Positions 15,530-60,665 of a stretch of 64,000 bases of DNA are shown piece by piece (position 1 is the stretch's first letter; every line of letters starts with the position of its first letter). The position numbers were made by a program, and so were the translations under genes. Location of the stretch: positions 3,040,001 to 3,104,000 of the forward strand of contig CBDCTK010000002.1 of assembly GCA_965222225.1 (NCBI GenBank). The letters are read 5' to 3'. The DNA is from Candidatus Poribacteria bacterium (GTDB lineage Bacteria; Poribacteria; WGA-4E; JAJDTR01). The notes under the pieces are model-generated. The model saw only the letters and a program-made list of their open reading frames with translations, ran no database searches and was not told where the DNA came from.

Positions 15530-15554
15530 GGCTGGTGCGCAGTGCGCACCCTAC
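15530..15554 (-). repeat. REP family B, GGCTGGTGCGCAGTGCGCACCCTAC
   Basis: Intact copies at about 9406, 15530, 18743, 26019, 38505, 15361, 51567; interrupted copies at 40919, 50591, 60411. Confidence 0.85.
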
Positions 15555-40728: not shown

Positions 40729-40972
40729 AGTGGCTTTCCTTAGAGGAACCGTTTACCTGTCGCCCCTCCGGGGCTTTGGTGTTTGGAGTTTCGGCGTTGC
40801 TATACACCTTCAGGATCTCTATCGCACGGGATTTACTATCGCGCTCCCTTTTCAGTCGCTTGATGGTTCAACCCAACCTACAGGGACCTACACTTGCCGT
40901 CCCGCCGGGGATTTCAAAGGCTGGTAAGAGCTCTATCGCACTCCCTATCCGGTCGCTTGATCGGTGCGCACC

Positions 40973-43022: not shown

Positions 43023-43366
43023 AGGATTTGCACCTCCGTGTTAAGGTTTATGTTTTCCACAAGAAACCGATGTGATGGGTTTTCGGACGATTTGTATTGA
43101 TTCAGTTCTGAGATTTTGCTAGAATTCCGGCAGTAAATTTTTGTGGCACATAGTCGTGCGGCGGCGGTTCGCGCATTGAACCCATGTGCCGGCGGTTTCA
43201 GTTTCCAATTGGTAAGTTTGTGCAGGTCGAGATAAGGAGAAGATCGCTATACGAACGCCATCGTCCTCGTTATTTTCTCGGTCGACTCCCCTACAGTATA
43301 CCTGATCCGAATCTGAAAGTGATAGTTTAATTTGTAGGTCTTACGCAGTCTTGACCGGATTGAATA

Positions 43367-44351: not shown

Positions 44352-44729
44352 CAATCGTGGCAATGCAATATTGATGGACTAAGACTCTGTTTGAATGGTC
44401 AGTAGCAAAGCCATTCCTAGTCTTTTGAAGAGGTATTTTCATGTTCTTGTAGTTGCTTGCTATATACCTGTCGCCCCGCTGGGGCTAAAGTGCGTGGGGG
44501 TTCGCCGTTTCTATATACCTTCCGCCCCTCCGGGGCTTACAGAGACTAGTGTAGGGAGTTTATCTTGATTCACAGTCACGAAAGTAGATTCATACTCGCC
44601 AGTTGATTTTTCGCTTTTGCGAGGAAGGGAAGACCAACGACGGGAGGGGTAGCACAGGGTGTTTATTTAACCCAATAGGGATCTTCGCGAAGTCGTATTC
44701 AACACAAAGAGGAGGCTCTCGTAACGACC

Positions 44730-45515
44730 ATGGATACAAACCTGAGACAGAGCAGCACGGTAACCGAAGCCGAATGGCAGCAATTGGAGGAGGTCGGCTA
44801 TGTGCGGCTGGGCGTGGTAGCGTCGGAGACGCAGATTGACGCGCTTTGCGAGCGAATCAATCAGATCATGCTCGGGAACATTCGCTATGAAAGGATGCAG
44901 ATGCAACTCTGTCCCTCCGCATCGGATGATCGCGAGATGGTGGATTTCAGCCAAAATCACAAGGGCAGTTCGCTGAAGTACCGAAAAATCCAGGAGCTGG
45001 AGATGGACCCGTTGTTCCTCGACTATATCCAGAATCCGCTTTTCAGGGACATCACGCAAAAGAAAATCGGGGATAGGGTTAGCGTCTTCCGGGCAATGTT
45101 CTTCAATAAACCTGCCGAAGGCGGCATATCGAAGAATTGGCACCAGGATTCGGGGTGGGACCTCAGCATTCCCGAAGAGATCACGGTTTACACGGCACTC
45201 GATCCGCAAACCCGAGAAAACGGTTGCTTGATGGTCATCCCCCATTCGCACAAGGAGTGCCCATTCGAGTCGGTCAACACGGACGAGAAGATACGGAAGT
45301 ACGCGCCACCGGAAAGGCGGGCTTTCATGGAGATGGAGAAGGGCGAGGTCGTCCTTTTCAAAAACAAACTGCTGCACTCCTCACTAGTGAATACCACAAA
45401 TCGTCCGCGCCGTGCCTTCAGCGTTGCGTTTGTTCATGCGGACACGGTCAACATGACTTCGGGCAGACGTTTTCCTCAGGTGATGCCGGAGTACCGCCCG
45501 GCAGCAAAGGCATAA
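44730..45515 (+). CDS. Phytanoyl-CoA dioxygenase family
   Basis: WHQD, ALD..ENGCL..PHSH, LLHSS, RRAFS. Confidence 0.9.
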   Translation: MDTNLRQSSTVTEAEWQQLEEVGYVRLGVVASETQIDALCERINQIMLGNIRYERMQMQLCPSASDDREMVDFSQNHKGSSLKYRKIQELEMDPLFLDYIQNPLFRDITQKKIGDRVSVFRAMFFNKPAEGGISKNWHQDSGWDLSIPEEITVYTALDPQTRENGCLMVIPHSHKECPFESVNTDEKIRKYAPPERRAFMEMEKGEVVLFKNKLLHSSLVNTTNRPRRAFSVAFVHADTVNMTSGRRFPQVMPEYRPAAKA

Positions 45516-45607
45516 TTTCAATGATAATCTCAAACAGTTCGTCAAAAATTCTTTCTCTCGCCAATCGGCTGTGGTCAAGATGGTTCTTGCCCGTTAGTTG
45601 CGCCGTG

Positions 45608-47026
45608 ATGGACATTGGAGGGGGCAGCGCTGTCTTTCGCGGCGACCCTCAACAGATTGGCAATACGACGCAGTTGTTCGTTGATGACCTCCTGATTCAT
45701 CGCAGGGAGGGAGTTACTCGCCGCGTCCAACAGGCAACCAAGATGGATAAACCTGTGTTGGCGCCCGAGCATCCGTGGGAGTTTGCGTATCATCCGGGGG
45801 AAGATGGGGTCGGTAGACACATCTACATCTATGGCACCGTGTTTTTCGACCCGCTCCAGAACCGGTACCGCATGTGGTACATGAGTCGCATGAGCGGCGG
45901 GCACGATTACGCTATCCCGGAATTGGAAATCCCGGGCGGTAATATCCACTGCGACTTGACACTATACGCAACGAGCAAGGACGGCATCCACTGGGAGCGG
46001 CCCAGTTTGGGGCTGTGCCACCTCAATCGCCTATCGGGAGGCGGGGAGAGCATCGTTGGCGACACTCAGAACAACATCATGCTCGACCTTCACGGCGCCA
46101 GCGTATTTCTTGACGAGGAGGATCCCGACCCGCAACCCGTAGTAGATCGGCGTAACGAAGGGAGTTTCAACGCTTGTTACGTTTCCGGGCTTGGTTATTA
46201 CGTGGCAGGGAGTCTCAATCGGTCAAACGATCCGCGCTACGAGTACATTAGTCACGAGGGGCAACGCGCCCGGAAACGGGTTGTCACGGCACTCATCAGT
46301 GACGGACGAGATCTGGAGCGTTGGGAGGAGACGATGGTCATCTACCCCGACGAACAGGACCCGCCCAGCACGCAGTTTTACGGGATGACGCCGTTTACCT
46401 ACGGCGATAGTGGGATTATCTTCGGGTTTCTCCACGTGTTCGATTACATAGGTCCCGGGCCCACCAATGACGATGGTCCCATCGACGCGCAGTTGGTGTA
46501 CAGCCGCGATGGCAGGTCGTGGCACCGAATGGAAGATCGAAGCCCGGTTATCCCGTTGGGTCCCAAGGGCGCTTTTGATGGCGGGATGATAATCATGACG
46601 GCGGTCGGCACATCCATGCACGATGACGAACTGGTCGCGTACTATACCGGAAGAAACATGGGGCACGGAGGGCCGAATAAGGATAGTTACTTCACCATCG
46701 CGAGAGCGAGTTGGCGGCGCGATCGGCTGGTGGCTCTGCAAGCGGACGCCGAGCGAGGCGTGGTGGAAACCGTGCCGCTGCAGGCATTAGGAAGCGGATT
46801 GGAAATCAACGCCGATGCAAAGGGTGGGGGGATCGCAGTGCAGGTGCTCGACGCGGAAGGGAACGTGCAACCGGGGTATTCAAGCGAGGCGTGCGATGCT
46901 ATCGACGATAACAACCTCGCGCATCAGGTTCGCTGGGAGGGCAGAGATTTGTCGGGTATCCGGCGTCCTTTCCGGTTGAGGTTCCTGATGCACAACGCGA
47001 AGTTGTATGCGTTCAGAATCAAGTAA
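45608..47026 (+). CDS. Beta-propeller glycoside-hydrolase-like protein, possibly with an internal deletion (start uncertain)
   Basis: QLFVDD, SKDGIHWERP, SRDGRSW, RRDR, LRF..AKLYAF. Confidence 0.65.
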   Translation: MDIGGGSAVFRGDPQQIGNTTQLFVDDLLIHRREGVTRRVQQATKMDKPVLAPEHPWEFAYHPGEDGVGRHIYIYGTVFFDPLQNRYRMWYMSRMSGGHDYAIPELEIPGGNIHCDLTLYATSKDGIHWERPSLGLCHLNRLSGGGESIVGDTQNNIMLDLHGASVFLDEEDPDPQPVVDRRNEGSFNACYVSGLGYYVAGSLNRSNDPRYEYISHEGQRARKRVVTALISDGRDLERWEETMVIYPDEQDPPSTQFYGMTPFTYGDSGIIFGFLHVFDYIGPGPTNDDGPIDAQLVYSRDGRSWHRMEDRSPVIPLGPKGAFDGGMIIMTAVGTSMHDDELVAYYTGRNMGHGGPNKDSYFTIARASWRRDRLVALQADAERGVVETVPLQALGSGLEINADAKGGGIAVQVLDAEGNVQPGYSSEACDAIDDNNLAHQVRWEGRDLSGIRRPFRLRFLMHNAKLYAFRIK

Positions 47027-47150
47027 CGCATCAAGTATGCAGTCTGGATTTGTCAATCCAGAACGAGCAGGTGGGGAGCGTGCCGAATCGCGAGTAAAAC
47101 TCGCTCCTACAGACAGAAGACGTGCAGTAGATAATGGATTGCTGGTGCTG

Positions 47151-48746
47151 ATGATGAATACTGAAGGATTGCTAAGCGAAACGCTTTACAACGGGATTGA
47201 ATTGCCCGTGGGATGGCCCCCAAACTACGGTGAGCCAACCGGCGAACCGATGCCGGTTCCCTATCTGGAGAACCCGCCGGATGTCATTTCGATTGACCTC
47301 GGTCGGCAACTGTTCGTGGACGATTTCCTGATTGAGGACACGACTTTGAATCGGACGTTCCATTCGGCGAGGATGTACCCCGGCAATCCGGTACTCAACG
47401 TTCCCACCTACAGCGGCGGTATCTGGTACGATTCGTACGAAGGCGTTTTCAAGAATTGGCACAATCTCGGACGCGACGGGATAGGCTATGCCACGTCCCA
47501 AGACGGCATTCACTGGGAGAAACCGGCGCTTGATGTCGTGGAGGGCACCAATATAGTTCTGGAACACACCGATCCGTGGGCGCCGAGCCAACGCTATAAC
47601 TGCGACACAACCAGCGTTTGGATTGATTACGAAGAGACCGACCCGGACAGGCGTTACAAAGCCTTCCTAACCTATCTGTGGCCCAACAACATCAACGATT
47701 TCTTTTTCTCTCTGCGTAATTCGGATGACGGCATCCACTGGAGCGAGCCGGCGGTCACCTCATGGCGCCACGTCGGCGACCATACGAATGCCCACTACAA
47801 TCCGTTTCGGAAGATGTGGGTGGCGAACATCAGATACCATTGGGGGAGCGACGGGCGTTGCCGAGCGTACCTCGAAAACCGAGATCCGGAGAAGCTGACG
47901 TGGGCGTCAAGCGAGGCGAGAGAAGGGGGAATTGTGCCGTGGTTGGCGGCTGACCGCCTGGATCCGCACCACCCCAAGTCGGAGTTTAGCGGAATCCGAC
48001 CTCAACTCTATCATTTCGACGCCATCGCCTACGAGAGCCTTATGTTGGGATTCTTCAGCGTGCATCAGGGACCGCCCAACGAGGAATGCCACAGATTGCG
48101 TATCCCAAAACGGAACGAAGTCCTACCCGGGTATAGCCGCGACGGTTTCCATTTTCACCGACCGAATCGGACGCCGCTGTTCGGAGCGAATGAGGAACGG
48201 GGCGCCTGGAATTGGGGAAATGTGCAGTCTGTCGGGGGCGGCTGCCTCGTCGTCGGGGACGAACTCTACCTGTACTGTAACGGGATAAGCCGGGTCGAGG
48301 ACGGCGAAAAAAGCGGACGCACCACGGGGTTGGGGGTTCTGCGGCGTGACGGCTTCGCTTCCATGGGGTCGTTCCGGGATGAAGAGAGTCTGACCACTCG
48401 ACCGGTGCGGTTCAGCGGCAAATACCTATTCGTTAACGCGGACTGCGATCAGGGCGAGTTGCGGGTCGAGGTGCTTGACAAGAATGGAAACGTCATCGCG
48501 CCCTTTACGAGAGAAAACTGTGAGCCGATTCGGGGCGACGAAACGTTGCGGCGGGTGAATTGGAAAGGCGTACCAGATATCGGCAGATTGGCTGGAGAGC
48601 CGGTGAGGTTCAGGTTTTATCTCAGATTGGGTGAATTGTACGCGTTTTGGGTAAGCCCGGATGAATCGGGCGCCAGCCACGGGTATATCGGGGCGGGTGG
48701 ACCTGGTTATACGGGTTTTGTGGATACGGTTGGATCAACCGGCTGA
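47151..48746 (+). CDS. Beta-propeller glycoside-hydrolase-like (GH32-like) protein
   Basis: GRQLFVDDFLI, SQDGIHWEKP, SDDGIHWS, SRDGFHF, LRRDGFASM, PVRFRF. Confidence 0.75.
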   Translation: MMNTEGLLSETLYNGIELPVGWPPNYGEPTGEPMPVPYLENPPDVISIDLGRQLFVDDFLIEDTTLNRTFHSARMYPGNPVLNVPTYSGGIWYDSYEGVFKNWHNLGRDGIGYATSQDGIHWEKPALDVVEGTNIVLEHTDPWAPSQRYNCDTTSVWIDYEETDPDRRYKAFLTYLWPNNINDFFFSLRNSDDGIHWSEPAVTSWRHVGDHTNAHYNPFRKMWVANIRYHWGSDGRCRAYLENRDPEKLTWASSEAREGGIVPWLAADRLDPHHPKSEFSGIRPQLYHFDAIAYESLMLGFFSVHQGPPNEECHRLRIPKRNEVLPGYSRDGFHFHRPNRTPLFGANEERGAWNWGNVQSVGGGCLVVGDELYLYCNGISRVEDGEKSGRTTGLGVLRRDGFASMGSFRDEESLTTRPVRFSGKYLFVNADCDQGELRVEVLDKNGNVIAPFTRENCEPIRGDETLRRVNWKGVPDIGRLAGEPVRFRFYLRLGELYAFWVSPDESGASHGYIGAGGPGYTGFVDTVGSTG

Positions 48747-48751
48747 ATCCT

Positions 48752-48775
48752 GTAGGAGCGATCTCCAGGTCGCGA
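48752..48775 (+). repeat. REP family A, GTAGGAGCGATCTCC(A)GGTCGCGA
   Basis: GTAG-led palindrome; copies at about 8436, 15671, 17552, 23495, 49515, 56121, 57570; variants at 15406, 23459, 38652, 47088. Confidence 0.85.
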
Positions 48776-48876
48776 TTCTTTCGTTTTCCTGACCATTTGG
48801 CAAGCGTGTGGCGAACTGGAAAGGATTCAATCTGCTATTAAACAATCGAATATGGATCCTACTAACAATAAAAACT

Positions 48877-49350
48877 ATGCAAGACATTCCAAACCGAGGA
48901 TACCGTCAATTGCGGAAAGGTAGACGCTCCATACCGGACACCTACTACTCCCTTACGCTTACCACAATTGACAGAAAACCGCTTCTTGCAAACGCGGAGG
49001 TTGCAGACGTTATATTCGAAGCCTTTGATTAGCTCGAAACCAATAAATGGTGCAGATGGTTTTGTCTCGTCGTAATGCCAGATCATATCCATTCCGTCAT
49101 TCAACTGGCGGGTAACAAGACCCTTTCGAGACTCATTCAATCCTTCAAAAGTTTCACAGCGAGACGGATTAACACCCACTTGGGACGCAGCGGTTCGCTC
49201 TGGCAAGCGGCTTATCATGACCACGGCATTCGGCACGACGAGTCATTGAATGCGATTATTCGATACTGTTACGAGAATCCTGTGAGGAGCGGATTGGTGA
49301 AGGAGGCGAGGGATTATCCGTATTGGCGGTCTAAATTCGAGATGGGGTGA
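48877..49350 (+). pseudogene. rayT: REP-associated tyrosine transposase (RAYT) with in-frame TAG at 49030
   Basis: LRKGRRS..YYSLTLTT, VVMPDHIHSV, SFKSFTAR, LWQAAYHDHGIR, YCYENPVRSGLV; flanked by inverted family-A REPs. Confidence 0.88.
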
Positions 49351-49589
49351 GGAGGGTACAATGCCCTCTGAGCGCAATCTCCCGCCGGCTCCTTTTTCCA
49401 TAGGAGCGATGAAGCGAGCGGGAATTTCTATCGCCCTCGTTGTTCACTCGGTTGATCGATAGAGATCCTCTCAAGGTCGCGATTCTTTCGTTTTCCGTCG
49501 TTTTGGCCAAGGAGTCGCGACCTAGAGATCGCTCCTACAGTAGCGTATCGTGTAATCCAGCTTTTTGACTGGAACATGCAACCGCATAG

Positions 49590-50378
49590 ATGGAAACAAT
49601 GACTATGGCGTTGATAGATGAACAAAAGCGGGAATTTGACGAGAACGGTTATGTTATCGTTCGCAACCTCCTCACGCGCGAGGAAGTGCAGGCGGTCGGG
49701 GGTCGCGCCGATCAGATTGCCGTGGGCGAAATCGCGCAGCCGGTGTCTGCCGTCCAAGTTGAACCGGCAATTAAACGCAAAGAAGAGACGGCAAAATCGA
49801 AAATCGACTCTATCCGCAAGCTGAGTAGCGTGGTTCGCACAGATCCGATTATGCTCGCGCACGCGACGAATGCCAAAATTTTGGACATCTTGGAAGGCTT
49901 AATCGGTCCCGATATCAAACTATTCGACGATCAGCTATTCATGAAATCGTCCGCGCACGGATCGCGCAAGAATTATCACCAGGATTCCAATTCGAGCGTG
50001 ATGTCGCAGTATGTACCCCATAGCCTCGTGAGTTGCTGGGCGGCATTGGATGACGCGACAGTAGAAAACGGTTGTCTGTGGTTTATTCCGGGGAGTCACA
50101 AATGGGGACGCATCGCCGTTGAACGTGAGCGGGAGATTGAAAGGTGGGCGCTTGCCGGTGCGTTGGAAAACGAGGTGCCTATTGAACTGAAAGCCGGCGA
50201 TTGTAGCTTTCATCATAGCCTTTTGTTGCACTGCAGTCAAGCCAATCGTTCGACGACCCGGCGTCGGGGGTATGCCACGCAGTACATGAGTTCGAAAACG
50301 AAGTATACGGGTGAAGGCACTCCGTTTAGGTGCAATTTCCTCTTGCTGCGCGGCGAAGAATTTCCGGGATGTGTATAG
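49590..50378 (+). CDS. Phytanoyl-CoA dioxygenase family (start may be 49599)
   Basis: YHQD, WAALDDATVENGCLWFIPGSH, LLHCS. Confidence 0.9.
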   Translation: METMTMALIDEQKREFDENGYVIVRNLLTREEVQAVGGRADQIAVGEIAQPVSAVQVEPAIKRKEETAKSKIDSIRKLSSVVRTDPIMLAHATNAKILDILEGLIGPDIKLFDDQLFMKSSAHGSRKNYHQDSNSSVMSQYVPHSLVSCWAALDDATVENGCLWFIPGSHKWGRIAVEREREIERWALAGALENEVPIELKAGDCSFHHSLLLHCSQANRSTTRRRGYATQYMSSKTKYTGEGTPFRCNFLLLRGEEFPGCV

Positions 50379-50681
50379 GCGGATCGAACGGTTCGCGGGT
50401 CGGGCTAGAAGGGATTTCTATCGCGGTCACTATCCATTCCCTTGATCGCACGGGATTTTCTATCGCCTTCGTTAATCACTCAGTTGATCGTTATTCACTC
50501 GTTTGATTGTTCGCTTGATTTCACTCTGGGGCTTTGGTGCTTAGGGCATCGGTGCTACTATACACCTGTCGCCCTTATAGGGCTTTCAAAGGCTGGTAAG
50601 AGCTCTATCGCGCTCCCTATCCGGTCACTTGATCGCAGTGCGCACCCTACAACTGATACATGAAACCAAAAAAAGGAGACA

Positions 50682-51458
50682 ATGATTATGGCATTGACAG
50701 ATGAACAAAAGCAGGAATTTGACGAGAACGGTTATATTATCGTTCGCAACCTACTGACCGACGAAGAGGTACGCGCGGTCGGGGGTCGAGCCGATCAGAT
50801 TTCCGTAGGGGAAGTTGTCCCGGAGGAGGGGTTTGGCATCCAAGTTGAACCGGCAATTCAGCGCAAGGAAGAGGTTGCAGAATCGAGACTTGAATCTATC
50901 CGCAAACTCGGCGGGTTGGTCCGCAAAGATCCGGTCATGCACGCGCACGCTACTAACCCGAAGATTTTGGATGTCTTGCAAGACCTAATTGGTCCCGATA
51001 TCAAGCTGTTCGGCGATCAACTGTTTATGAAATCGTCCGCGCACGGATCGCGCAAGAACTATCACCAGGATTCCAATTCGTGGAGACCGTATGTTCCGTA
51101 TAGTCTCGTGAGTTGCTGGGCGGCACTGGACGACGCTACGGTAGAAAATGGTTGTCTGTGGTTTATTCCCGGGAGCCACAAATGGGGGCTGCTCGACGTT
51201 GAACGTGAGCGAGAGATTGAGAAGAAGGCGCTTGCGGGACCGCTGGAAAATGAGGTGCCGATTGAACTGAAAGCCGGCGATTGCAGTTTTCATCACAGCC
51301 TTACGTTGCACTGCAGCCATACAAATCGATCGAAGACCCGGCGTCGCGGGTATGCCACGCACTACATGAGCGCGAAAACGAAGTATACGGGTGAAGGTAC
51401 TCCGTCCAAGTCCAATCATCTGTTGCTGCGCGGTCAGGAATTTCCGGGGTATGTTTAG
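50682..51458 (+). CDS. Phytanoyl-CoA dioxygenase family (tandem paralog)
   Basis: Same motifs as 49590..50378; AGGAG RBS. Confidence 0.9.
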   Translation: MIMALTDEQKQEFDENGYIIVRNLLTDEEVRAVGGRADQISVGEVVPEEGFGIQVEPAIQRKEEVAESRLESIRKLGGLVRKDPVMHAHATNPKILDVLQDLIGPDIKLFGDQLFMKSSAHGSRKNYHQDSNSWRPYVPYSLVSCWAALDDATVENGCLWFIPGSHKWGLLDVEREREIEKKALAGPLENEVPIELKAGDCSFHHSLTLHCSHTNRSKTRRRGYATHYMSAKTKYTGEGTPSKSNHLLLRGQEFPGYV

Positions 51459-51647
51459 AGTCAGGTTGAATAAGGGTGGCAAAGCCGTTTTTGGTCCTTT
51501 GAGTTGCTACATATCTTGAAGATTCTTCTGCGATTTGATGATTGCTGATTGTGCACCATAAGGAGAGGTGGGCGGTGCCCACCCTACAAAGTAAATTGAG
51601 ATCTTGAGGCGCACTTTTTACAAACTGACGTAACGAAAGGCATTCGT

Positions 51648-53066
51648 ATGAACCAAGCAATGAATTTTCCGGATCCAAATTTTCCACTTGTTCAACTACC
51701 GACGCAATTCCGCGCCCAGCGGCACACGATGGTGGATAGGCAGGTGGCGATAGGAGAAACCAAAGAGGTATTTCGGGCACAGGGTCCCGGGTGTGTGAGG
51801 CACATCTGGATTGTTCCAAATCCGATCTCGGACACCCGTTTTACCGAGGATTATATAGACAATTCCAATACCAACGCTATCATCAAAATCTACGTCGATG
51901 ACGAATCGCGGCCGTCAGTGAATATGGATCTGAAGCGGCTGTGCGGCGTGCTGCTCGATCAATCTCCGTATCGTGTCGACAACGCCGGGTTCGCAATTTT
52001 GCCCAGAAAAATGGGGTCGGTGCACGGCGACTGCTACAACATTTATTTACCAATTCCGTTCGCCAAGTCGTGCCGTATCACGATGGAGCCGTTGATGGAT
52101 CAGGTGATACGTATAATGGCGGACTGGCAACAGTTCCCCGAGGGTACGGACATCACCCCTTACCGTTTTCACGCGGTATATAGAAGTGAATACCCCGCGA
52201 GTCATCACTCATCCTTTCTCATGGCTGATTTATCGGGAAAGGGTTTTATCGCGGGTATCGTCAAAGGCATCAGACAGCGCGAGCACAGCGACATGATCTA
52301 TCATACCGGCGGGCAGGTGTGGATGATCGATGGGGAGAGCGATCCTCACGTCATGCGGGGGATCAACGAGGAGGATGATTTCGGATTCGGCTGGGGCTAT
52401 CACCCGGTGATGACACGCTGGATCGGTTGCCCGTATCACCGCTATGCGACCCGTACCGACCAGGACGGGGTTATCTACCGTTTGTTCGGCATGAATCCGG
52501 TAACGTTCGACTCCTCGCTGCTACTCCGTTGCGGGTCTCGCGCGGACGACACGGAGACCGTGGTGTACTACTACCGGGTGCCGGAAAGCCAAGCGCATCC
52601 GGTCACTTCGCCCGAATCGTGGGAAATTGCGGGGCCATTCGGATGCGGCAACTACGAGCAGTTCCTACAATCGGAAATCCCGGAGGAGGTAACTGGCGCC
52701 TGGACGGGACAGTTTCAAGAGGGCGAAGTGGAGTTCTCGGTACACTCCGCCAAAACGGAACACACATGGATTGACTTGTCAACCTACTGCCGTTCCGGCT
52801 CTCAGCGCCAATTGGATCGTTCCGCTTATGCCCGCACCACCATTGAGTCTGAGGAGGAGCGGTCAATCCAAATTCGGATCGGATTCGACGATTGGTTGAC
52901 CGTGTGGCTAAACGGTGAGAAGTTGGGAACCTTTCGCCATGACCACGGTTTCGCGGCGATTAACGTCCCCGCGCGTTTGAAGAAGGGCGCCAATAAACTG
53001 ATGGTCAAGCTCAGCAACTTTGAAAACATCACGCATGGGTGTTGGGCGATGAGTTGCTCACTATAG
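51648..53066 (+). CDS. DUF2961 (GH172-like) protein with C-terminal beta-sandwich domain
   Basis: GPGCVRHIW, YLPIPFAKSC, IDGE…EEDDFGFGWG; GFDDWLTVWLNG…LKKGANKLMVKL. Confidence 0.75.
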   Translation: MNQAMNFPDPNFPLVQLPTQFRAQRHTMVDRQVAIGETKEVFRAQGPGCVRHIWIVPNPISDTRFTEDYIDNSNTNAIIKIYVDDESRPSVNMDLKRLCGVLLDQSPYRVDNAGFAILPRKMGSVHGDCYNIYLPIPFAKSCRITMEPLMDQVIRIMADWQQFPEGTDITPYRFHAVYRSEYPASHHSSFLMADLSGKGFIAGIVKGIRQREHSDMIYHTGGQVWMIDGESDPHVMRGINEEDDFGFGWGYHPVMTRWIGCPYHRYATRTDQDGVIYRLFGMNPVTFDSSLLLRCGSRADDTETVVYYYRVPESQAHPVTSPESWEIAGPFGCGNYEQFLQSEIPEEVTGAWTGQFQEGEVEFSVHSAKTEHTWIDLSTYCRSGSQRQLDRSAYARTTIESEEERSIQIRIGFDDWLTVWLNGEKLGTFRHDHGFAAINVPARLKKGANKLMVKLSNFENITHGCWAMSCSL

Positions 53067-53247
53067 TCATTGCAACTAAGAATTACACATGTGTTTATAA
53101 CATACCCAATTTCCCACCCATTCCCATTGAGCGGGTCGGGCTTCCAGCCCGACCCGCTCAATGGGAAACGTTGCAAACCAGGAGATTGTGAGCTACGTCG
53201 AGCCAATCAACGCTCATATGTGTAAATATAAATGCAAATGACTATAG
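53061..53247. mobile_element. MITE-like element with long TIRs and a central perfect hairpin
   Basis: CTATAGTCATTGCA…TTACACAT / ATGTGTAA…TGCAAATGACTATAG; internal CCCATTGAGCGGGTCGGGCT-TCC-AGCCCGACCCGCTCAATGGG. Confidence 0.7.
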
Positions 53248-53258
53248 AGAACCTGGAT

Positions 53259-53444
53259 TAGGTTTTGTTGACATTTTTCCGAGGCGTGTCTGTAATTCGC
53301 CCAGAAATACCTAATTGTAGGGGCGAGGTGACCTCGCCCCTACAATATAGGGTCACGTAACGCGCCGGAATCTTGCAATTATCCCAAATCGCCTCAAGGC
53401 GCATATGGAGATAGGTTCAGTTTGTCAAATGTCAACAGAACTTA
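53259..53444. mobile_element. MITE-like element enclosing a REP
   Basis: TIRs TAGGTTTTGTTGACATTT / AAATGTCAACAGAACTTA; internal GTAGGGGCGAGGTGACCTCGCCCCTAC. Confidence 0.65.
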
Positions 53445-53481
53445 GGCATTCTGTAAAGAGAAGGATTAGACAGAGCAAGCT

Positions 53482-54336
53482 ATGGGAACAAGATTGGAAG
53501 GCAAAGTAGCTATCATTACCGGTGCAACGCTGGGACTCGGGAAAGCGGCGGCATTGCTGTTCGCCAGAGAGGGCGCTTCGGTTGCCGTCTGCGACCGGGG
53601 TCGAACACCGGAAAACGCCCAAAAGCTGCTTGATGCGGCGGTAGGGCTCCCCGGCGAAATCGCCTACAAGAAGTGCGATGTCATGGATAAGGATGACATC
53701 GCCGCGCTTGTGGAATTCACTCAGGCGCGGTACGGGAGGATTGACGTGATGGTGAACAACGCCATTATCGACAATCCCGGCGGGAGGCTGGAGGATGTCA
53801 CGGTTGAAGATTGGGAAGACGGGTTGTTCTGTCATTTGAGGGCACCGCTAGTTTTCTGTAAGGCGGTGGTGCCGCTGATGATTGAGCAGGGCGGCGGGAG
53901 CATTATCAATGTCTCATCGGGCAATGCGCTGTTCGGAAGTCCCAGTATCTCATCGTACGGTCCAGCCAAGGCGGGCATGATTAACTTCACGAAGAGTTTA
54001 GCGGTTACCTACGGACCTTACGGGATTCGCGCCAACGCGCTGACGCCCGCGCGAATGCTGACTGAGAAAAAACTCGAAATGCTTGAAGGCAATCCGGCAG
54101 AGGTCAGAAGACAGAAATTTCTCTATCCGCGGGGCAATCCGGCGCAGCCGGAGGAGGTGGCGGAGGTCATGCTGTTCTTGGCTTCGGATGAGTCGTCCGC
54201 CGTCACCGGGCACAGCTTGGTTGCGGATTGCGGGGCGTCGGCGTTCAATCCGCTGAGTATTCCGGGGCGACTGGAACGGAATATCCGAGAGGAGTTGGAA
54301 GCGCAAGGCTCGGAATGGCTGCATGGCGAGAAGTAA
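53482..54336 (+). CDS. Short-chain dehydrogenase/reductase
   Basis: TGATLGLG, VNNA, YGPAK, GIRANAL. Confidence 0.92.
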   Translation: MGTRLEGKVAIITGATLGLGKAAALLFAREGASVAVCDRGRTPENAQKLLDAAVGLPGEIAYKKCDVMDKDDIAALVEFTQARYGRIDVMVNNAIIDNPGGRLEDVTVEDWEDGLFCHLRAPLVFCKAVVPLMIEQGGGSIINVSSGNALFGSPSISSYGPAKAGMINFTKSLAVTYGPYGIRANALTPARMLTEKKLEMLEGNPAEVRRQKFLYPRGNPAQPEEVAEVMLFLASDESSAVTGHSLVADCGASAFNPLSIPGRLERNIREELEAQGSEWLHGEK

Positions 54337-54441
54337 ATATCAATCGAGCGAGTGAATAACGACCGATCAAAGGAAGGATCAAGGAAGCGAATAGCGAGCG
54401 CGATAGTGATCCACTTGCCACTGTGTCTAGGGAGGATTTCT

Positions 54442-55077
54442 GTGGAATATATTCCTATATTTCAACTATTTCAACCTTATGAGTTTGGCGAGAGGGAGAA
54501 AGCTTCGCTGGACAGAGACGGACCCTTTCTCCTGCCCGGCATTCTGACGCCGGGGGCTTGCGAGCGGTTGACGGCGTCGCTGTCGCACATTGAAGACCTG
54601 ATGCCCTCCGCCGTCAAAGGGCAAGAGCCTAGCAGCTTTGCCGCGGAGTACGACTCCTATCTGGAGAGCCTCATCCTGCATCCACAGATGTGTGATTTAG
54701 TACGCGGAATTCTGGGTGAAGAGATTCGATTTGACCACTGCGTGACGCTCAACCGCCCGGGCGGAAACGGGGGTTTGCATTGGCACAGCCACGAATACGC
54801 GGATGATGATCCGAGCTTAGGTTTTTTGCGCATCTTCTTCTACGTCAACGGGTTTGAGGCTGGCGACGGCGGCTTGAAAGCCGTGCCGGGCAGCGTCGTC
54901 TTGATGTGGACGCACGCCGCGCACGCGGTCAGTCCGAGACGCGCGAGCAGCGATATGCGATGGACGGTGGTGTACGCCTACCGAAATCCGGGCAGCCCCA
55001 CTCTGGCGCGTTGGCTTACGCCGGAATTTGAACAAAAGCAGATTCACGGCGCCAAGCGTCTCATGAACCTATATTGA
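54442..55077 (+). pseudogene. PhyH-like dioxygenase copy with a 44-codon in-frame deletion
   Basis: AVPGS|VVLMW here versus AVPGSHHYRD…APARTVVLMW in the neighbouring paralog. Confidence 0.75.
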
Positions 55078-55258
55078 GTCATGTAGGTTGAGTTGAACAG
55101 AAACCGCATAGTTCATCGGTAGAATCGATACTGCCTCTTTCTAAGTGAATGAGAAAGCGAGATAGCAACGGTGAAACCCAACTCTCAAGCCGGTCGCGTG
55201 TAACGCTTTGCTGACCACTAATCACTAGCCACTGGTCACTGATTTTCAGAGGATTCCC

Positions 55259-56017
55259 GTGGAACATATCCCCATATTTCTACCTTACGAGTTTGGCGAG
55301 AAAGAGAAAGCCCTATTGGACAAAGACGGGCACTTTCTCCTGCCCGGCATCCTGACGCCGCAGGCTTGTGAGCGACTGAAGGCGTCGTTGTCGCACATTC
55401 AAGACTTGACCCCGTCCGCTGTCGAAGGTCACAAGCCCAACCATTTTGCGGCGGAATACGACTCCTATCTGGAGGGCCTCCTCTCGCATCCGCAGATGCT
55501 CGACTTGGCGCGGAGAATTCTCGGTGAGGAGATCCGATTTGACCACTGTGTGACGCTCAACCGCCCGGGCGGCAACCGAGGCTCGCATTGGCACAGTCAT
55601 GAATACGCGGATGACAACCCTAGCTTGGGTTTTGTTCGCATCTTCTTCTACGTCAACGGTTTTGAGGTTGATGATGGCGGCTTGGAAGCGGTGCCGGGCA
55701 GCCACCACTACCGGGACGCAAAAATCAAGGCAGAAACGGACGAGGCGCTAAAGACGGGATGGATGGCGGGAAAGACGCACCCCTTGACGGGGGAACCGTT
55801 GGAGATACAGGATTTGACCGCTCCGGCGAGAACAGTCGTCTTGATGTGGACACACGCCGCGCACGCAGTCAGTCCGAGACGCGCATGCAGCGATACGCGA
55901 TGGACCGTGGTATACGGTTACCGAAATCCGGGCTGCCCATCGGCTCCGCGTTGGATTACCCCGGAATTTGAAGCGAAACGGATTCCCGGCGCCGAGGGGT
56001 TGATGGGCCTCTATTGA
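55259..56017 (+). CDS. PhyH-like dioxygenase with H-x-H metal motif
   Basis: DGHFLLPGIL, WHSHEY, VPGSH, HAAHAV, RWTVVY. Confidence 0.8.
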   Translation: MEHIPIFLPYEFGEKEKALLDKDGHFLLPGILTPQACERLKASLSHIQDLTPSAVEGHKPNHFAAEYDSYLEGLLSHPQMLDLARRILGEEIRFDHCVTLNRPGGNRGSHWHSHEYADDNPSLGFVRIFFYVNGFEVDDGGLEAVPGSHHYRDAKIKAETDEALKTGWMAGKTHPLTGEPLEIQDLTAPARTVVLMWTHAAHAVSPRRACSDTRWTVVYGYRNPGCPSAPRWITPEFEAKRIPGAEGLMGLY

Positions 56018-56341
56018 GCCATGTAGGTTGGGTTGAACAAGAAATATCATATAAAAGCAAATAGCGTGCTATTTCTCAAGTAAACTGGCGTGCGAGACAG
56101 TAATAGTGAAACCCAACACTGTAGGAGCGATCTCCGAATCGCGACCTTTTAGAAATCAGTGCTGTAGGGAGGAATCAGCGATTAAGCGAGTGAACAACGA
56201 GGAATAAAGCGACTGGTCAAGGAGCAGGATTTTCTATCGCCTTCCTTATCCAGTCAGTTAATCGCTCACTATCCGCTCGCTTGATCCCAACCTACGGGCT
56301 ATTCACCCCATAGCCCTAATACCAATCAGGAGTGATTTTCA

Positions 56342-57490
56342 ATGGCAGACCCAAAGATAACGAAAATCGAAGTTGTGGTTTACGAACACGAGATCCAGGA
56401 CATGGGAACCGATTACAACGGGTTCAACACGGTCTACGAGAAGGGAAGCATTCTCAAGATGCGGCCCTCAATTCTTCGGATTCATACGAACACCGGGATC
56501 ATCGGCGAATCGGACGGCGGGCGGTTGTCCGACAATGTCGTGCGCTATCTACTGGGCAAGAATCCGTTTCATCGCGAGAAAATCTACAACGATCTGAAAC
56601 GTGGGCTGCGCCACACGGACCGCACGGCTATCAGTTCGGTTGATGTCGCGTTGTGGGATTTTGCGGGAAAGGCGCTCGGCGCCCCGATTTACCAACTTCT
56701 CGGCGGTTACAAGAAAACCATCCCCGCCTACGCAAGCACCTATCACGGCGATGAGAACGGCGGGCTTAGCACGCCAGAAGCCTTCGCCGATTTCGCGGAA
56801 CAGTGCAGCGAGTTAGGGTACTGCGCCTTCAAGATTCACGGTTGGGGGAATGCGCCGATTGAGCGCGAGGTGGCAAATGTTCTCGAGGTCGGGAAGCGCG
56901 TGGGGGATCGGATGGACCTGATGCTCGATCCGGCGTGTGAATTGGAAACTTGGGCGGACGCGCTCAAGGTGGGGAAAGCGTGCGATGCGGCAAACTTTTT
57001 CTGGCTGGAGGATGCTTATCGAGACGGCGGCGTGTCGATATTCGGGCATCGGAAACTGCGCGAGTTAATCAACACGCCACTGCTGCAGACAGAGCACGTT
57101 TTCGGACTGGAGCAGCACGTCGACTTTATCGTGAACGGCGGTACGGATTTCGTGCGCACGGGCACCTACGAAGATGGCGGGATTACCGGCGCCATGAAGG
57201 TCGCACACGCGGCAGAAGGTTTTGGTTTGGATGTGGAGTTCCACGGCGGAGGCCTGGCGCATCGGCACTGCATCGCTGCCGTCCGAAACACCAACTATTA
57301 TGAACTGGGGCTGTTGCACCCGTTGATTCATCAGACGAAGCCGCCAATCCGCCCGCCCGAATTTACCGACGAATTCGAGAATATTGACGAAAACGGTCAT
57401 GTGCCGGTGCCGCAGGGGCCCGGAATCGGGGTGGAGATGGATTGGGATTATATTGAACATCACCGGGTTGATGGCGTTGTCTACGAATGA
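56342..57490 (+). CDS. Mandelate racemase/muconate lactonizing (enolase superfamily) enzyme
   Basis: DVALWDFAGK..PIYQLLGG, FKIH, LMLDP, WLED, PQGPGIG. Confidence 0.9.
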   Translation: MADPKITKIEVVVYEHEIQDMGTDYNGFNTVYEKGSILKMRPSILRIHTNTGIIGESDGGRLSDNVVRYLLGKNPFHREKIYNDLKRGLRHTDRTAISSVDVALWDFAGKALGAPIYQLLGGYKKTIPAYASTYHGDENGGLSTPEAFADFAEQCSELGYCAFKIHGWGNAPIEREVANVLEVGKRVGDRMDLMLDPACELETWADALKVGKACDAANFFWLEDAYRDGGVSIFGHRKLRELINTPLLQTEHVFGLEQHVDFIVNGGTDFVRTGTYEDGGITGAMKVAHAAEGFGLDVEFHGGGLAHRHCIAAVRNTNYYELGLLHPLIHQTKPPIRPPEFTDEFENIDENGHVPVPQGPGIGVEMDWDYIEHHRVDGVVYE

Positions 57491-57762
57491 TCGCGGATGT
57501 GTGGATTCGTAGTCAGGACCAGCAAGCAGAGGAGGGAAACTGGGGATTTGACTATCGCAACCATCCTCTGTAGGAGCGACCTCCCGGTCGCGATTATCCT
57601 TTTGTGGATACCTTGATGTCCAGTTTCGCGAGCAGGAGAAGTTCTCTATCGCACTCGCTATGCGCTCGCTCGATCTCCTACAGAAGACGTGCAGTAACGG
57701 AATTTCTATCGAATCTCTATGGGAGTTCTATCGCGTTCCCTATCCGGTCACTTGATCCCAGA

Positions 57763-57791
57763 TTTACATTTCCCGCGAGATTTGCTATAAT
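57763..57791 (+). promoter_or_regulatory. Sigma70-like promoter
   Basis: TTTACA-17 bp-TATAAT about 60 bp upstream of 57850. Confidence 0.65.
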
Positions 57792-57849
57792 CCGTTTGAA
57801 AGCAGTAAAGACTACTACGTATTTCAACGCAACCGGGAGGAGCACTCAT

Positions 57850-58908
57850 ATGAAGATATTAATTACAGGTGGGACGGGAAGGATTGGGGGGAATCTTGCC
57901 AAACGTTTGCTGGAAAAGGGGCACGACATCCGCAGTTTCGTCTACCCCGCCGATGCCAGCCGCGTGGATAAACTTGACGAGTATGACCGCGTCGAAACGG
58001 TTGTCGGGGATTTGCGCAACTTCGACGATGTGAAACGCGCCGTGAATGGGGTGGACGCCATCTATCATCTCGCCGCGGCATTTGTCGGACCTTTCGACAA
58101 TCTGCAATATCTAAACATCAACGGCATGGGAACGCTCAACATTTTGGAGTGTATTCGCACGGATTGTCCCAATCTGCACCGTTTCGTTTATGCCTGCACC
58201 GAGGCGATTTATTGGCGCCTGGGGGAAAAGGGGCGCTATTTCGAGGAACCGATTACCGAGGATATGGTCAGCCGCTACAAGCAGATGCCGTACTTCTTGA
58301 CCAAATGGGTTGGCGAGGAGTTGAGCATGAGCTATCACCTTCAGTATGGCGTTCCGACGACCGTCTTCCGTTTCGCTACCGTGATTGAGCCGGGCGAGTT
58401 TCTAAACAAAGATGGTTTGCCGGGGCTTTTCCTATTCAGTCCGGCTTATAATCGCGTCAAAGACGAATCGAGAGAGGATGCGGACGAGCGGGAGATTATT
58501 GAGACCCTCAAATCGCTTTGGACGGGCGAGGAAAAGTTCCTGCTAACCCGCAACCCGAACGGGACGCCGTACAAACAGGAATTTACGGATGTACGCGACA
58601 TTGTGCAGGGACTGGTTTTGGGGATTGAGAAAGATGAGGCGCTCGGCGAGGAGTTCACGCTTGGCGGGGCGGCGCTGTTTAAGTGGGAGGAGGCTGTGCC
58701 CTACCTCTCCGAGCGATATAACTTGGACTATGTCGATGCGAGAGTGCTGAGTTCCAACCATTTCGAGTTCGATCTCACCAAGATTAAGGCATTGCTGGGA
58801 TATCAGCCCCAACACGATTTGGAAAGCGTTCTTGATACCGCCGAAGCGATACGGCGCGGCGAAGAGGTAGGTATTATTCCGACGGGCATCCGATGGGGGA
58901 AGGCGTGA
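57850..58908 (+). CDS. NAD-dependent epimerase/dehydratase
   Basis: ILITGGTGRIG, YHLAA, YFLTK, DVRDIV; GGAGG RBS. Confidence 0.9.
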   Translation: MKILITGGTGRIGGNLAKRLLEKGHDIRSFVYPADASRVDKLDEYDRVETVVGDLRNFDDVKRAVNGVDAIYHLAAAFVGPFDNLQYLNINGMGTLNILECIRTDCPNLHRFVYACTEAIYWRLGEKGRYFEEPITEDMVSRYKQMPYFLTKWVGEELSMSYHLQYGVPTTVFRFATVIEPGEFLNKDGLPGLFLFSPAYNRVKDESREDADEREIIETLKSLWTGEEKFLLTRNPNGTPYKQEFTDVRDIVQGLVLGIEKDEALGEEFTLGGAALFKWEEAVPYLSERYNLDYVDARVLSSNHFEFDLTKIKALLGYQPQHDLESVLDTAEAIRRGEEVGIIPTGIRWGKA

Positions 58909-58914
58909 ATCGCA

Positions 58915-59161
58915 AGAGCTTGTTTGACAAATAGGTGGCAAAACAATTTTCGGACACCTGGGCCAGGGCTTTTATCATGTTTTTGTTGCCGCCCCCTATA
59001 CACCTGTCGCCCCGCTGGGGCTTGAGTGCGCAGGATTTTGCGGTTTCTATAAACCTTTCGCCCCTCCAGGGCTTTCAAAGACTGGTGCAGGGGTTTTATC
59101 TTAATCAAAGATTAGTTTCAGGGCAGTGGCTCTGCTCGAAATAAGTTTTCAAACAGGTTCT
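58915..59161. mobile_element. MITE-like element enclosing family-D REPs
   Basis: Ends AGAGCTTGTTTGA / TCAAACAGGTTCT; internal CACCTGTCGCCCCGCTGGGGCT and CCTTTCGCCCCTCCAGGGCT. Confidence 0.55.
59001..59022 (+). repeat. REP family D, CACCTGTCGCCCCGCTGGGGCT
   Basis: Copies or variants at about 38476, 40197 (interrupted), 40756, 44465, 44518, 50563, 59054; two flank tnpA. Confidence 0.75.
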
Positions 59162-59175
59162 AATGGAGTCCACGA

Positions 59176-60348
59176 ATGAGTATGAATGCAGAAAATTATC
59201 CGCGAGACATCAGAATAACGAAGATTGAACAGGTGACGTTGCAGGTGGATCGCCCCGAAATCGGGACTAACTCGCGGGCAGAAGAGATAATCTATCCCGA
59301 GCCGAGCTGGAAGTGGGATGAAGGCGTCATCCGTATCTACACTAGCGACGGCACGCTGGGATGGGGCGTCGGACGCGCCGATGCGGAACTCGCGCGACGC
59401 GCCTTGAATCGTAGTCCATTCGATCTACTCAACCCGGCAACGGGCGTCACGGACGAATTCAGAGGGCTTGAAAACGCCCTGTGGGACACTATTGGCAAGA
59501 TACTCGGGGTACCGGTGTATCAGCTCATCAGCGACCAAAGTTATGCGGATTGGCTGCCGGTTTACGATAGCACCATCTACTTCAACGATCTCCTGTACGA
59601 CTCGAAAGAGGCGGGGCTGAAACGGATAGCGGAAGATGCGGAAAGCAGCGTAAGGAACGGCTTTCGGGCGTGCAAGATGAAGATTGGGCGCGGTTGTTTC
59701 CTCATGGATCACGACGAAGGTTTGAAGCGGGACATCGAGGTTGTCAAAATCATGCGCAAGATTGCCGGCGAGGATTTCAATATCCACGTCGATGCGAATA
59801 ACGGCTACACGTATGACGAGACGGTCGCCTTCTTGGACGCGACAAGCGATGTCGGCGTTTTCTGGATAGAGGAGATGTTTGACGAGGAGGTTGAGGCATA
59901 CCGCAATCTGAAAGCGGCTATCAAGAAACGAAACCTGAAGACGTTTATCGCCGATGGCGAGACCCGAACGCGCGAGCCGCTGGAGTTCTACGACCCGTTC
60001 TTTCGGGAGGGCGTGCTGGATGTCATTCAGCACGACATTCGCGGGCTTGGCATCACCGGCTGGCGGCGGCTTGCCAAGATGGCGGGCGAACACGGCGTGA
60101 AGTGCGCGCCGCACAACTGGTCATCGTTGCTCGGGCTTTTTTTGAGCTTTCAGTTTGGCAAGGCGATCCCGAATTTCCTCTACGGGGAATGCGCGACCCT
60201 CACCAGCGATGTCATCGATACCTCGGGATATATCTTCAAGGACGGCGCTTTCAGCGTTCCCGACACCCCGGGACTCGGTTTGGAATTGAATCAGCGGGTT
60301 TATTATGAGCGGTACGCCGGGCGCGAGACGTGGGTGTTGGAGTGTTGA
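59176..60348 (+). CDS. Enolase-superfamily (MR/MLE) enzyme
   Basis: ENALWDTIGK, CKMKIG, VDANNG, WIEE, ADGE, PHNW, PGLGLE. Confidence 0.9.
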   Translation: MSMNAENYPRDIRITKIEQVTLQVDRPEIGTNSRAEEIIYPEPSWKWDEGVIRIYTSDGTLGWGVGRADAELARRALNRSPFDLLNPATGVTDEFRGLENALWDTIGKILGVPVYQLISDQSYADWLPVYDSTIYFNDLLYDSKEAGLKRIAEDAESSVRNGFRACKMKIGRGCFLMDHDEGLKRDIEVVKIMRKIAGEDFNIHVDANNGYTYDETVAFLDATSDVGVFWIEEMFDEEVEAYRNLKAAIKKRNLKTFIADGETRTREPLEFYDPFFREGVLDVIQHDIRGLGITGWRRLAKMAGEHGVKCAPHNWSSLLGLFLSFQFGKAIPNFLYGECATLTSDVIDTSGYIFKDGAFSVPDTPGLGLELNQRVYYERYAGRETWVLEC

Positions 60349-60665
60349 GGATTCGCAGAAGCGGGAATTGGTGATTTGATAATTGAAGATTGCATGCTAG
60401 CGCTCCCAAAGGCTGGTGAGATCTCTATCGCGGTCGTTATTCACTTCCTTAATCGCAGTGCGCACCCTACAGGAATTGTATCGCAGAGGGAGGGAATAAA
60501 CCGCCCTACCACAGTGCCTCTAGTAGGTTGGCTTGAACGATCTCGCTCGATCCTTGCCAGAGCGCCATCTTGGATCGTCCTAGCTAAAACAAACCTTTCA
60601 ACACCAAACAAGAGGTAGCGGTTAGACGGAGTGTTTTAGGGTACATATTGCACGGAGTCCTCGGT

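Follow-up and report, generated by a model that had tools for sequence, protein, structure and literature searches.

Between the genes of a 64,000-nucleotide (nt) stretch from a sponge-symbiont Candidatus Poribacteria bacterium (assembly GCA_965222225.1, contig CBDCTK010000002.1, positions 3,040,001 to 3,104,000; hereafter the window) lie hairpins of several repetitive extragenic palindromic (REP) families, some of them interrupted by a short repeat that we call the element. This structured repeat of 35-37 bases, present in about 1000 copies in the 5.70-Mb source genome, behaves like one of the smallest known mobile elements. An initial annotation had described it as splitting REPs of at least four unrelated families at seven sites in the window. 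All seven sites hold a 37-nt unit between the halves of REPs that are intact elsewhere in the window, and families A, B, C and D are each hit and each have an uninterrupted copy there (Table 1), for which the chance expectation in shuffles is 0. The three family-B sites read GGCTGGT(R)A, the element and (GCAGT)GCGCACCCTAC, the family-D site at 40197-40252 reads AGCCCCAGCGGGG, the element in reverse and CACAGGTG, and at the family-A sites 23805-23863 and 57626-57681 the element lies within TCGCGA..GGAG / (GC)TCCTAC.

The consensus of the unit is GGGATCTCTATCGC-AC-TC-GC-TATTC-GC-TC-GC-TTGATC (in short GGGATCTCTATCGC..TATYC..TTGATC), 37 nt in length. Copies are called + where GGGATC..TTGATC lies on the + strand, the structured G.A strand being the complement. 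With an nhmmer profile made from six window copies we found 1472 matches in the source genome (G000) at E<=10 and 869 at E<=0.01. Among the latter, 671 were near full length and 632 ungapped, and these 632 ungapped full-length copies are the set used below for context, covariation and empty-site counts. A degenerate pattern allowing up to two mismatches matched G000 983 times and its reverse 0 times. The window contains 43 nhmmer matches at E<=10, and the core 9-mer CTCTATCGC occurs in it 13 times compared to 0.45 expected.

Conservation bounds the element at positions 2-38 (37 nt). The TTGATC end is sharp, with 1.5-2.0 bits at positions 36-38 dropping to 0.4 beyond, and the GGG end fades through 1.45, 1.19, 0.75 and 0.18 bits at positions 4 to 1. 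GATC is the sole sequence common to both ends, and the consensus has no GTAG tag and contains ATAG twice. By a crude call of open reading frames (ORFs), 755 of 866 matches lie outside ORFs of at least 100 aa. Orientation relative to genes shows no clear bias (229 co-oriented versus 279 opposed), and about 70% of copies are concordant with local GC skew.

Table 1. Element copies, uninterrupted REPs and Y1 transposase genes, in coordinates of the window
Feature	Position	Strand	Details
Element	60418-60454	+	splits family-B REP GGCTGGTGA/GCAGTGCGCACCCTAC at 60411-60470; nhmmer E 3.2e-07
Element	50598-50634	+	in 5' arm of family-B REP 50591-50650; preceded by a family-D hairpin
Element	40926-40962	+	in family-B REP 40919-40975
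Element	30379-30415	+	substitutes for ATG in family-C REP loop, GCGGGGCAAG/CCCGCCTAC, 30367-30424
Element	40209-40245	-	foot of family-D hairpin 40197-40252, adjoining 3' end of the Y1 transposase gene
Element	23819-23855	+	loop of family-A REP 23805-23863; another copy 23875-23911
Element	57639-57675	+	family-A variant REP 57626-57681; another copy 57721-57757
Element, full length	9267-9303	+	nhmmer
Element, full length	8356-8392	+	nhmmer
Element, full length	9479-9515	+	nhmmer
Element, full length	15594-15630	+	nhmmer
Element, full length	32791-32827	+	nhmmer
Element, full length	32854-32890	+	nhmmer
Element, full length	49421-49457	+	nhmmer
Element, full length	50411-50447	+	nhmmer
Element, full length	54377-54412	-	nhmmer
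Element, compound copy	40812-40864	+	5' module, then a second 5' module and a 3' module (tandem or nested)
Intact family-A REP TCGCGATTCGGAGATCGCTCCTAC	8436-8459	+	also 56121-56144 on -
Intact family-B REP GGCTGGTGCGCAGTGCGCACCCTAC	15530-15554	+	exact also at 18743, 26019; variants at 9406, 38505
Intact family-C REP GCGGGGCAAGATGCCCCGCCTAC	12853-12875	+	
Intact family-D hairpin	59001-59022	-	also 44465-44486
IS200-like Y1 transposase gene	40255-40728	-	Pfam Y1_Tnp, 83.7 bits; lies between inverted family-D hairpins, the arrangement of genes for REP-associated tyrosine transposases (RAYTs)
RAYT-type Y1 gene	48793-49350	+	one in-frame TAG; family-A REP flanks

Structured strand and insertion sites

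Among the 632 copies four column pairs covary, 20-28, 17-31, 16-32 and 21-27, with mutual information of 1.14, 0.91, 0.54 and 0.46, respectively. When 74 copies from five genomes were aligned, 94.9% of the 292 cells formed standard pairs, compared to 64.2% in shuffles, and 103 cells carried two-sided changes, compared to 17.8 in shuffles. These pairing and double-change values were reached in 0 of 500 shuffles, and sliding the partner columns abolished the signal. Non-Watson-Crick cells are mostly C.A or A.C on the written strand (n=317), equivalent to G.T wobbles on the complement, and only 37 are wobbles on the written strand; we therefore assign the structure to the complementary strand, which reads 5'-GATCAA-NN-GA-NN-GRATA-NN-GA-NN-GCGATAGAGATCYY. 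The predicted hairpin comprises two 2-bp helices flanking a conserved GA/GA internal loop (tandem G.A), and tandem G.A pairs are known to be stable. This strand is also the one that bears the 5' GTAG tag of the host REPs. The eight covarying positions yield 174 stem haplotypes, and the maintenance of pairing across them suggests recognition of the element itself.

Of the 632 copies, 188 (29.7%) have a CCTAC tag no more than 12 nt 3' of TTGATC, compared to 385 of 20,000 random intergenic positions (1.9%). REP tags are thus enriched about 15-fold next to the element, in keeping with the placement in REPs made in the initial annotation, although REP-embedded copies remain a minority: 211 copies lie beside another copy, 221 have other repeated flanks and 12 have unique flanks. 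Relative to the REP tag the element has a fixed orientation, nearly always one way. The opposite layout, with GTAGG on the left, was seen in 41 cases, which on inspection were junction artefacts (..CTGT/AGGATC..) or a fully palindromic REP.

We found a paralogous empty site, with identical 9+9-nt flanks and at most 8 nt between them, for 157 of the 632 copies, compared to 22 of 632 when flank pairing was shuffled. Exact matches to filled and empty sites numbered 17 and 65 for the B loop, 17 and 57 for the B 5' arm, 7 and 50 for the B2 loop, 18 and 16 for the C loop, 8 and 100 for the A loop, and 28 and 36 for the D foot. Net gain over the empty site was 33-35 nt in 147 of 157 cases; with the 37 nt set by conservation, this corrects the 35-40 nt given initially for the inserts. 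Between 1 and 7 target bases were lost in 122 of the 157 cases, 1 to 3 of them in 113, and the remaining 35 insertions were clean, with 0-1 nt shared. The replacement of a few target bases and the lack of a clear target duplication, both noted at the outset, are borne out by these comparisons.

The position of insertion within the hairpin varies between loop, 5' arm and foot. On the structured strand the element comes after a G, usually one that closes a G-rich run (GGTGCG^, GCGGGG^, AGCGGGG^, GAGCGA^), and the sharp junction has 1-2 shared nt. The junction at the GATC end is identical in all contexts. A stem spanning the insertion point was present in 79 of 632 copies versus 42 and 23 in two controls, a weakly positive signal that stems from the REP-tagged class (52 of 188). 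Self-insertion also occurs: a second element follows position 17 or 18 of the outer copy, the rest of which comes after it. Beyond hairpin loops, insertions thus fall in stem arms, hairpin feet and the element itself.

Individual sites carry many versions of the element, and individual versions occupy many sites. The flanks GGCTGGT/GCAGTGC enclose 17 copies with 10 haplotypes, GGGCAAG/CCCGCCT 15 copies with 7, and TGGGCAG/CCACCCT 5 copies with 5, and the commonest haplotype, AG-AT/AT-CT, is found in 52 copies across 31 contexts. This combination is hard to explain without repeated independent arrivals. A composite unit of two D hairpins and one B REP (D-D-B), present in 33 copies between two anchors, holds 0, 1, 2 or 3 elements at differing sites: five copies are element-free, and others are filled at the first D foot, the second D foot, or both. 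In shorter D-B forms the D foot is filled by itself or in combination with the B arm, with the B loop, or with the two B sites at once. In short forms reading ACCTGT[E]GCACCCTAC, where E is the element (e.g. C2:717068 and C2:5331600), the left flank of the D-foot site is coupled to the right flank of the B-loop site, which suggests deletion by recombination between two element copies.

CRISPR arrays and related genomes

The densest element cluster in G000, with 28 matches in 5 kb, adjoins a type I cas locus with genes for Cas3 HD/helicase, Cas7 (DevR/Csa2), Cas5 and Cas1. This locus lies beyond the window (L132, G000:C2:2696001-2708000), and its array of clustered regularly interspaced short palindromic repeats (CRISPR) is heavily invaded by the element. 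Eight copies of the 37-nt CRISPR repeat GTAGCAACCATTGCCSCGAYGAAAAGSGGACTGAAAG are intact in the array. A further eight break off at GAAAAG(C) and pass directly into GATCAAG, and eight elements in the opposite orientation end in ..TTGATC and pass directly into CCCGAYGAAAAG. CRISPR repeats are copies of one another, and the element is therefore the newcomer there. In sister genomes (G001-G005, G007 and G009 in this text; G015 is a further Poribacteria genome) the repeat is arranged in regular arrays, and intact repeats and junctions number 49 and 0 in G001, 14 and 0 in G007, and 41 and 2 in G009, where the junctions lie just beyond the array end; G004 has two junctions and one intact repeat, G003 two junctions, and G005 and G002 one junction each, these three with no intact repeat. 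The intact arrays of sister genomes show insertion and not loss, and in CRISPR arrays the empty state is the older.

Both invaded repeats in G009 consist of the 5' part of the repeat, an element with its G.A strand on top, 34 or ~95 nt, an inverted element, and CCCGAYGAAAAG with the remainder of the repeat. The sharp GATC end forms both outer junctions, in each case following a G in the hairpin arm of the strand concerned, and a 12-13-nt piece of the CRISPR repeat is present on both sides. Such duplication is restricted to the array, being found in 4 of 86 inverted doublets in G000, all of them in the CRISPR array. Within the L132 array there are, in addition, segmental duplications of ~240 nt in tandem and a ~95-nt filler that recurs and includes a degenerate repeat. 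A second element-dense region of the genome, G000:C2:1535000-1580000, has 10-17 matches per 5 kb.

Targets of the element are G-rich hairpin repeats generally: REPs of at least four families, hairpins on either side of a RAYT-like gene, the repeats of CRISPR arrays, and other copies of the element.

GidA of G000 is 91-93% identical to the GidA proteins of several Candidatus Poribacteria metagenome-assembled genomes, which places the organism in that group. Synteny, with 85-92% gene identity, extends to nine congeneric genomes, and we took 80 kb from each of four of them for comparison of loci. Most intergenic regions are too remodelled to align between species at ~90% identity. Where loci could be compared, empty and filled orthologous sites were seen, as had been called for initially. 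The window locus 44460-44572 is empty and reads ACCTTCCGCCCCTCCGGGGC, whereas its syntenic counterpart in G002 has an element at the foot of the D hairpin. A family-A REP uninterrupted in G001 contains elements in G003, a single copy in G002 corresponds to a nested one in G001, and a REP filled in G002 is empty in G003. At the place corresponding to 60411-60470, G005 has by eye a diverged but uninterrupted REP. The distribution of the element across Poribacteria is patchy. All eight genomes searched from genus g1, among them G000, carry it (724 to 1436 matches each), as do all four genomes of g4, a genus of another family (~225-245 each); elsewhere, one g2 genome has 3 matches, 1 of 14 g6 genomes has the element, and family f2 has it in 0 of 82.

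Enzymes, mechanism and rival explanations

The source genome has five Y1_Tnp matches. Either of the two Y1 genes of the window, the TnpA gene at 40255 and the RAYT gene at 48793-49350, had been named initially as a possible HUH enzyme for the element; the two genes are tied to REP families D and A, respectively. The 40255 gene is low-copy and the genome's only IS200-like gene, and its ends are family-D hairpins, not the element. Of 121 Poribacteria genomes 75 have it, 52 of the 82 in the element-free family f2 among them, and it is missing (E<=1e-30) from two of the four genomes of the element-bearing g4; its distribution does not track the element. The RAYT gene, with its TAG stop, is associated with family-A REPs and not with the element. 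In G005 and G001 an apparently intact homologue of this RAYT stands elsewhere, with the orthologue of window gene 56342-57490 on one side and that of 57604-58908 on the other. Of two more RAYT-like genes, the one at C2:3727502-3728017 is flanked by REPs of a kind of its own, and the one at C2:2563962-2564735 has no REP flanks nearby.

Inverted copies of the element directly bracket a fragment encoding the C-terminal 93 aa of a Y1 transposase (C2:3560265-3560543). This fragment may be what is left of a cognate gene; the Y1 genes compared include no close full-length relative. Inverted copies also bracket a Y1 gene in G015 (locus L116:1360-1917), which is sporadic, occurring in 27 of 121 genomes including element-free genera. 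A fragment resembling the G015 gene lies at C2:1545633-1545950, inside the second element-dense region. The g4 genomes have only 2-4 Y1 genes each, of mixed kinds. A single weak RVT_1 match is present in G000, at C2:4500547-4501089 (27.5 bits, in a 679-aa open frame).

The element is established as a discrete module, structured on the complementary strand and present or absent at otherwise identical sites, with the empty state the older in CRISPR arrays. We think it probable that it is a non-coding, non-autonomous micro-element of 35-37 nt that has inserted many times, in fixed orientation, into hairpin repeats. The fixed orientation, the compensated hairpin, the invariant 5' junction and the imprecise other junction together suggest that a protein recognises the folded single strand and that joining is strand-specific. 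We infer that the element would move as single-stranded DNA (ssDNA), aided by a trans-acting enzyme that recognises the hairpin. At its sharp end, GATC, where the structured strand has its 5' terminus, the element would be linked to the 3' end of a target just behind a G, mostly within a G-rich hairpin arm; resolution of the opposite end would be imprecise and cost 1-3 target bases. Some REP-plus-element composites were later amplified as units by whatever moves REPs, and recombination between element copies may delete the DNA between them. HUH enzymes (Y1 transposases, Rep proteins and relaxases) work with this polarity, linking the 5' end of the donor to a 3'-OH of the target, and the polarity proposed here fits strand transfer of the HUH/Y1 type. 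The element is probably a trans-mobilised micro-element of ssDNA/HUH type. Of the initial idea of a tiny non-coding element that integrates into ssDNA hairpins, the part that concerns a REP-invading element is supported; the ssDNA/HUH chemistry is probable, and no enzyme for it was found among the Y1 genes above. More tentatively, and as a possibility we would not back at even odds, the element may be a hyperparasitic ssDNA micro-transposon of ~35 nt, in which an HUH-type enzyme recognises the G.A hairpin and joins its 5' end to a 3'-OH after G in extruded arms, and which lives in the REPs of several RAYT systems, rides their amplification, invades itself and erodes CRISPR arrays.

Several results weigh against a mobile micro-element. 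Only 12 of the 632 copies have unique flanks, so most may have come via amplification or shuffling of larger repeats. At TGCGCAG/GCACCCT one haplotype is found in 12 of 15 copies and at TACCTGT/CCACTCT in 8 of 8, which indicates that those REP-plus-element composites were amplified as units; the spread of identical composites, held initially to speak against insertion, is in part real, yet multi-haplotype sites show independent arrivals too. Outside CRISPR arrays, filled and empty states cannot be polarised at ~90% identity between species. Target duplications are absent from single insertions (157 empty-site pairs) and from 82 of the 86 inverted doublets in G000, the other four being those of the CRISPR array. 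Nearest-neighbour folding of either strand does not predict the element hairpin, and no isolated copy beats its shuffles; the lone exception, 30360-30430, owes its fold to the REP stem. The GC-skew bias is shared by uninterrupted REPs and is thus not element-specific. Orphan 5' and 3' modules 150-5000 nt apart in G000 have no recurrent spacing or shared interior of the kind expected of an autonomous parent. None of the Y1 genes considered (40255, G015 and the g4 and g6 complements) matches the distribution of the element. The junction asymmetry would also be produced by target-primed copying.

Three other explanations were considered. Module shuffling without dedicated transposition, which we regard as unlikely, would make the element a mosaic block, comparable to the extra motifs of bacterial interspersed mosaic elements (BIMEs), moved by illegitimate or short-homology recombination, gene conversion or promiscuous RAYT cleavage and rejoining, with the composites amplified afterwards. 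Residence of 620 of 632 copies in repeated DNA, the single-haplotype composites and the tandem duplication of modules are consistent with it, as are the ACCTGT[E]GCACCCTAC forms, in which the mixing of flanks from two sites indicates recombination between copies. PMC3733652 also describes REP families that have alternative long structured loops, as well as loops common to more than one family. Gene conversion, however, requires flanking homology and cannot take one haplotype to 31 contexts, or to families A, B, C and D and CRISPR; the constant GATC-end junction, the fixed orientation and the strong selection for pairing across 174 haplotypes likewise argue against shuffling.

Target-primed templated synthesis, in which a nick after G would prime copying of a short RNA or ssDNA by a reverse transcriptase (RT) or repair polymerase, starting with ATCAAG and ending in an imprecise template switch, strikes us as improbable. 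It would account for one sharp and one decaying end, for the 1-2 nt common at the sharp junction and for the loss of 1-3 target bases, and the weak RVT_1 match would be a candidate RT. Partial copies at E<=1 lack the fuzzy-end module in 292 cases and the other module in 32, an imbalance that is weak evidence given that detection favours the longer 3' module. Against this, the structured strand would be the newly made DNA and not the template, nothing connects the sole RT-like gene to the element, and no poly-A-like or template-derived tails were seen among the copies. That the element is not mobile at all, and that long-loop REP variants arose once per family and spread with their REPs, is very improbable. 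Such variants have been described (PMC3733652) and one haplotype does dominate some sites, but the reading is already contradicted by the haplotype data (many per site, and many sites per haplotype), by the D-D-B units with 0-3 elements in varied combinations, and by insertions in CRISPR repeats, given the clean arrays of sister species. Self-insertions and the 444 of 632 copies with no nearby REP tag also speak against it.

Known relatives and other features of the window

The nearest kin of the element are very small nested mobile repeats of the kind known as small dispersed repeats (SDRs), and we do not class it as a REP, a MITE (miniature inverted-repeat transposable element) or an IS200 derivative. 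The Nostocaceae repeats SDR1-8, reportedly described by Elhai et al. in 2008, are said to be hairpins of 21-27 nt that show compensatory changes and are limited to a narrow clade, to nest within HIP1, heptamer repeats and copies of themselves, and to move by a mechanism then unknown. By these traits the element is alike in being shorter than 40 nt, forming a compensated hairpin, nesting in other repeats and in itself, and being clade-restricted. It differs in clade (Poribacteria versus Nostocaceae), in length (35-37 nt versus a reported 21-27 nt), in its hosts (GTAG-tagged REPs and CRISPR repeats versus HIP1 and heptamer repeats) and in its tandem G.A loop. The finding of SDR5 inside HIP1 is mentioned in PMC5861425.

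IS200/IS605 derivatives offer a further comparison, the element being likewise of ssDNA type, strand-specific, hairpin-bearing and free of target duplication. Palindrome-associated elements derived from IS200/IS605 (PATEs) are of ssDNA type, have two subterminal hairpins and insert precisely 3' of a fixed tetra- or pentanucleotide. We rejected this class because the element has a single hairpin, the resident Y1 gene has D hairpins at its ends, 1-3 target bases are replaced in most cases and the flanks show only a G-rich preference. A classical MITE mobilised by a DDE transposase was rejected because only GATC is common to the two ends and duplications are missing both at single insertions and at 82 of 86 doublets.

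REPs and REP doublets forming hairpins (REPINs), as characterised in PMC3116915 and PMC3733652, share with the element a short length (20-40 nt class), extragenic location, abundance, strand specificity and structure, and G.T wobble on the tagged strand, the same strand that is structured in the element. Inverted copies of the element flank a Y1 fragment at C2:3560265-3560543 and a Y1 gene at G015 L116, a placement like that of REPs around RAYT genes, and the G015 gene also occurs in element-free genera. A 5' GTAG (or CGTC) tag is a REP trait, whereas the GTAG (CCTAC) tags near the element belong to its host REPs, and its own consensus has none. It differs further in having only four Watson-Crick pairs, in residing inside other REPs and in lacking a consistent RAYT. 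REPs are also targets of insertion sequences, as with IS1397 and ISKpn1 in the palindromic units of BIMEs (Tobes and Pareja, 2006; as cited in PMC3116915 and PMC3733652). REP hairpins are preferred sites for these as for the element; they have a transposase and target duplications, whereas the element is non-coding, 37 nt long and makes no duplication. A known structured RNA family was rejected, with no Rfam family matching the element at E<=10 over 40000-61000. A limited literature search of main texts returned nothing on repeats of Poribacteria or on such an element in CRISPR repeats.

Elements this small fall below the size thought needed for two transposase-binding ends, and their mode of movement has been debated as a problem ever since SDRs were described in cyanobacteria. 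The Poribacteria data set is unusually rich, with ~1000 copies per genome, at least 12 sequenced species, 174 compensated stems, defined empty sites and one fixed junction, and it opens the mechanism to tests with oligonucleotides and a few candidate proteins. A smaller element can, as seen here, take REPs and CRISPR repeats as its hosts, with loss of CRISPR arrays and deletions between element copies among the consequences, and this bears on genome evolution in sponge symbionts and on repeat annotation in metagenome-assembled genomes.

Elsewhere in the window, a 246-nt block of two family-D hairpins lies between two genes at 58916-59161. In G005, G001, G002 and G003 the bordering genes either abut or have no more than 29 nt between them, and the absence of the block there indicates that D-D doublets come and go. 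Repeat-rich intergenic DNA is bordered by paralogous GFO/IDH/MocA oxidoreductases (38698-39792 and 40973-42073) and by paralogous PhyH dioxygenases (49590-50378 and 50682-51458), and the copy number of these pairs varies among sister genomes. Logan contigs of four runs over 40500-60499 break at repeats, and among the contig matches listed none has a 33-37-nt indel at the element. One contig from an RNA library covers 56951-57740, including an element copy, which is not proof of transcription. The only Rfam match above the gathering threshold in the window is a large-type bacterial signal recognition particle (SRP) RNA at 2872-3139 (RF01854, 188 bits).

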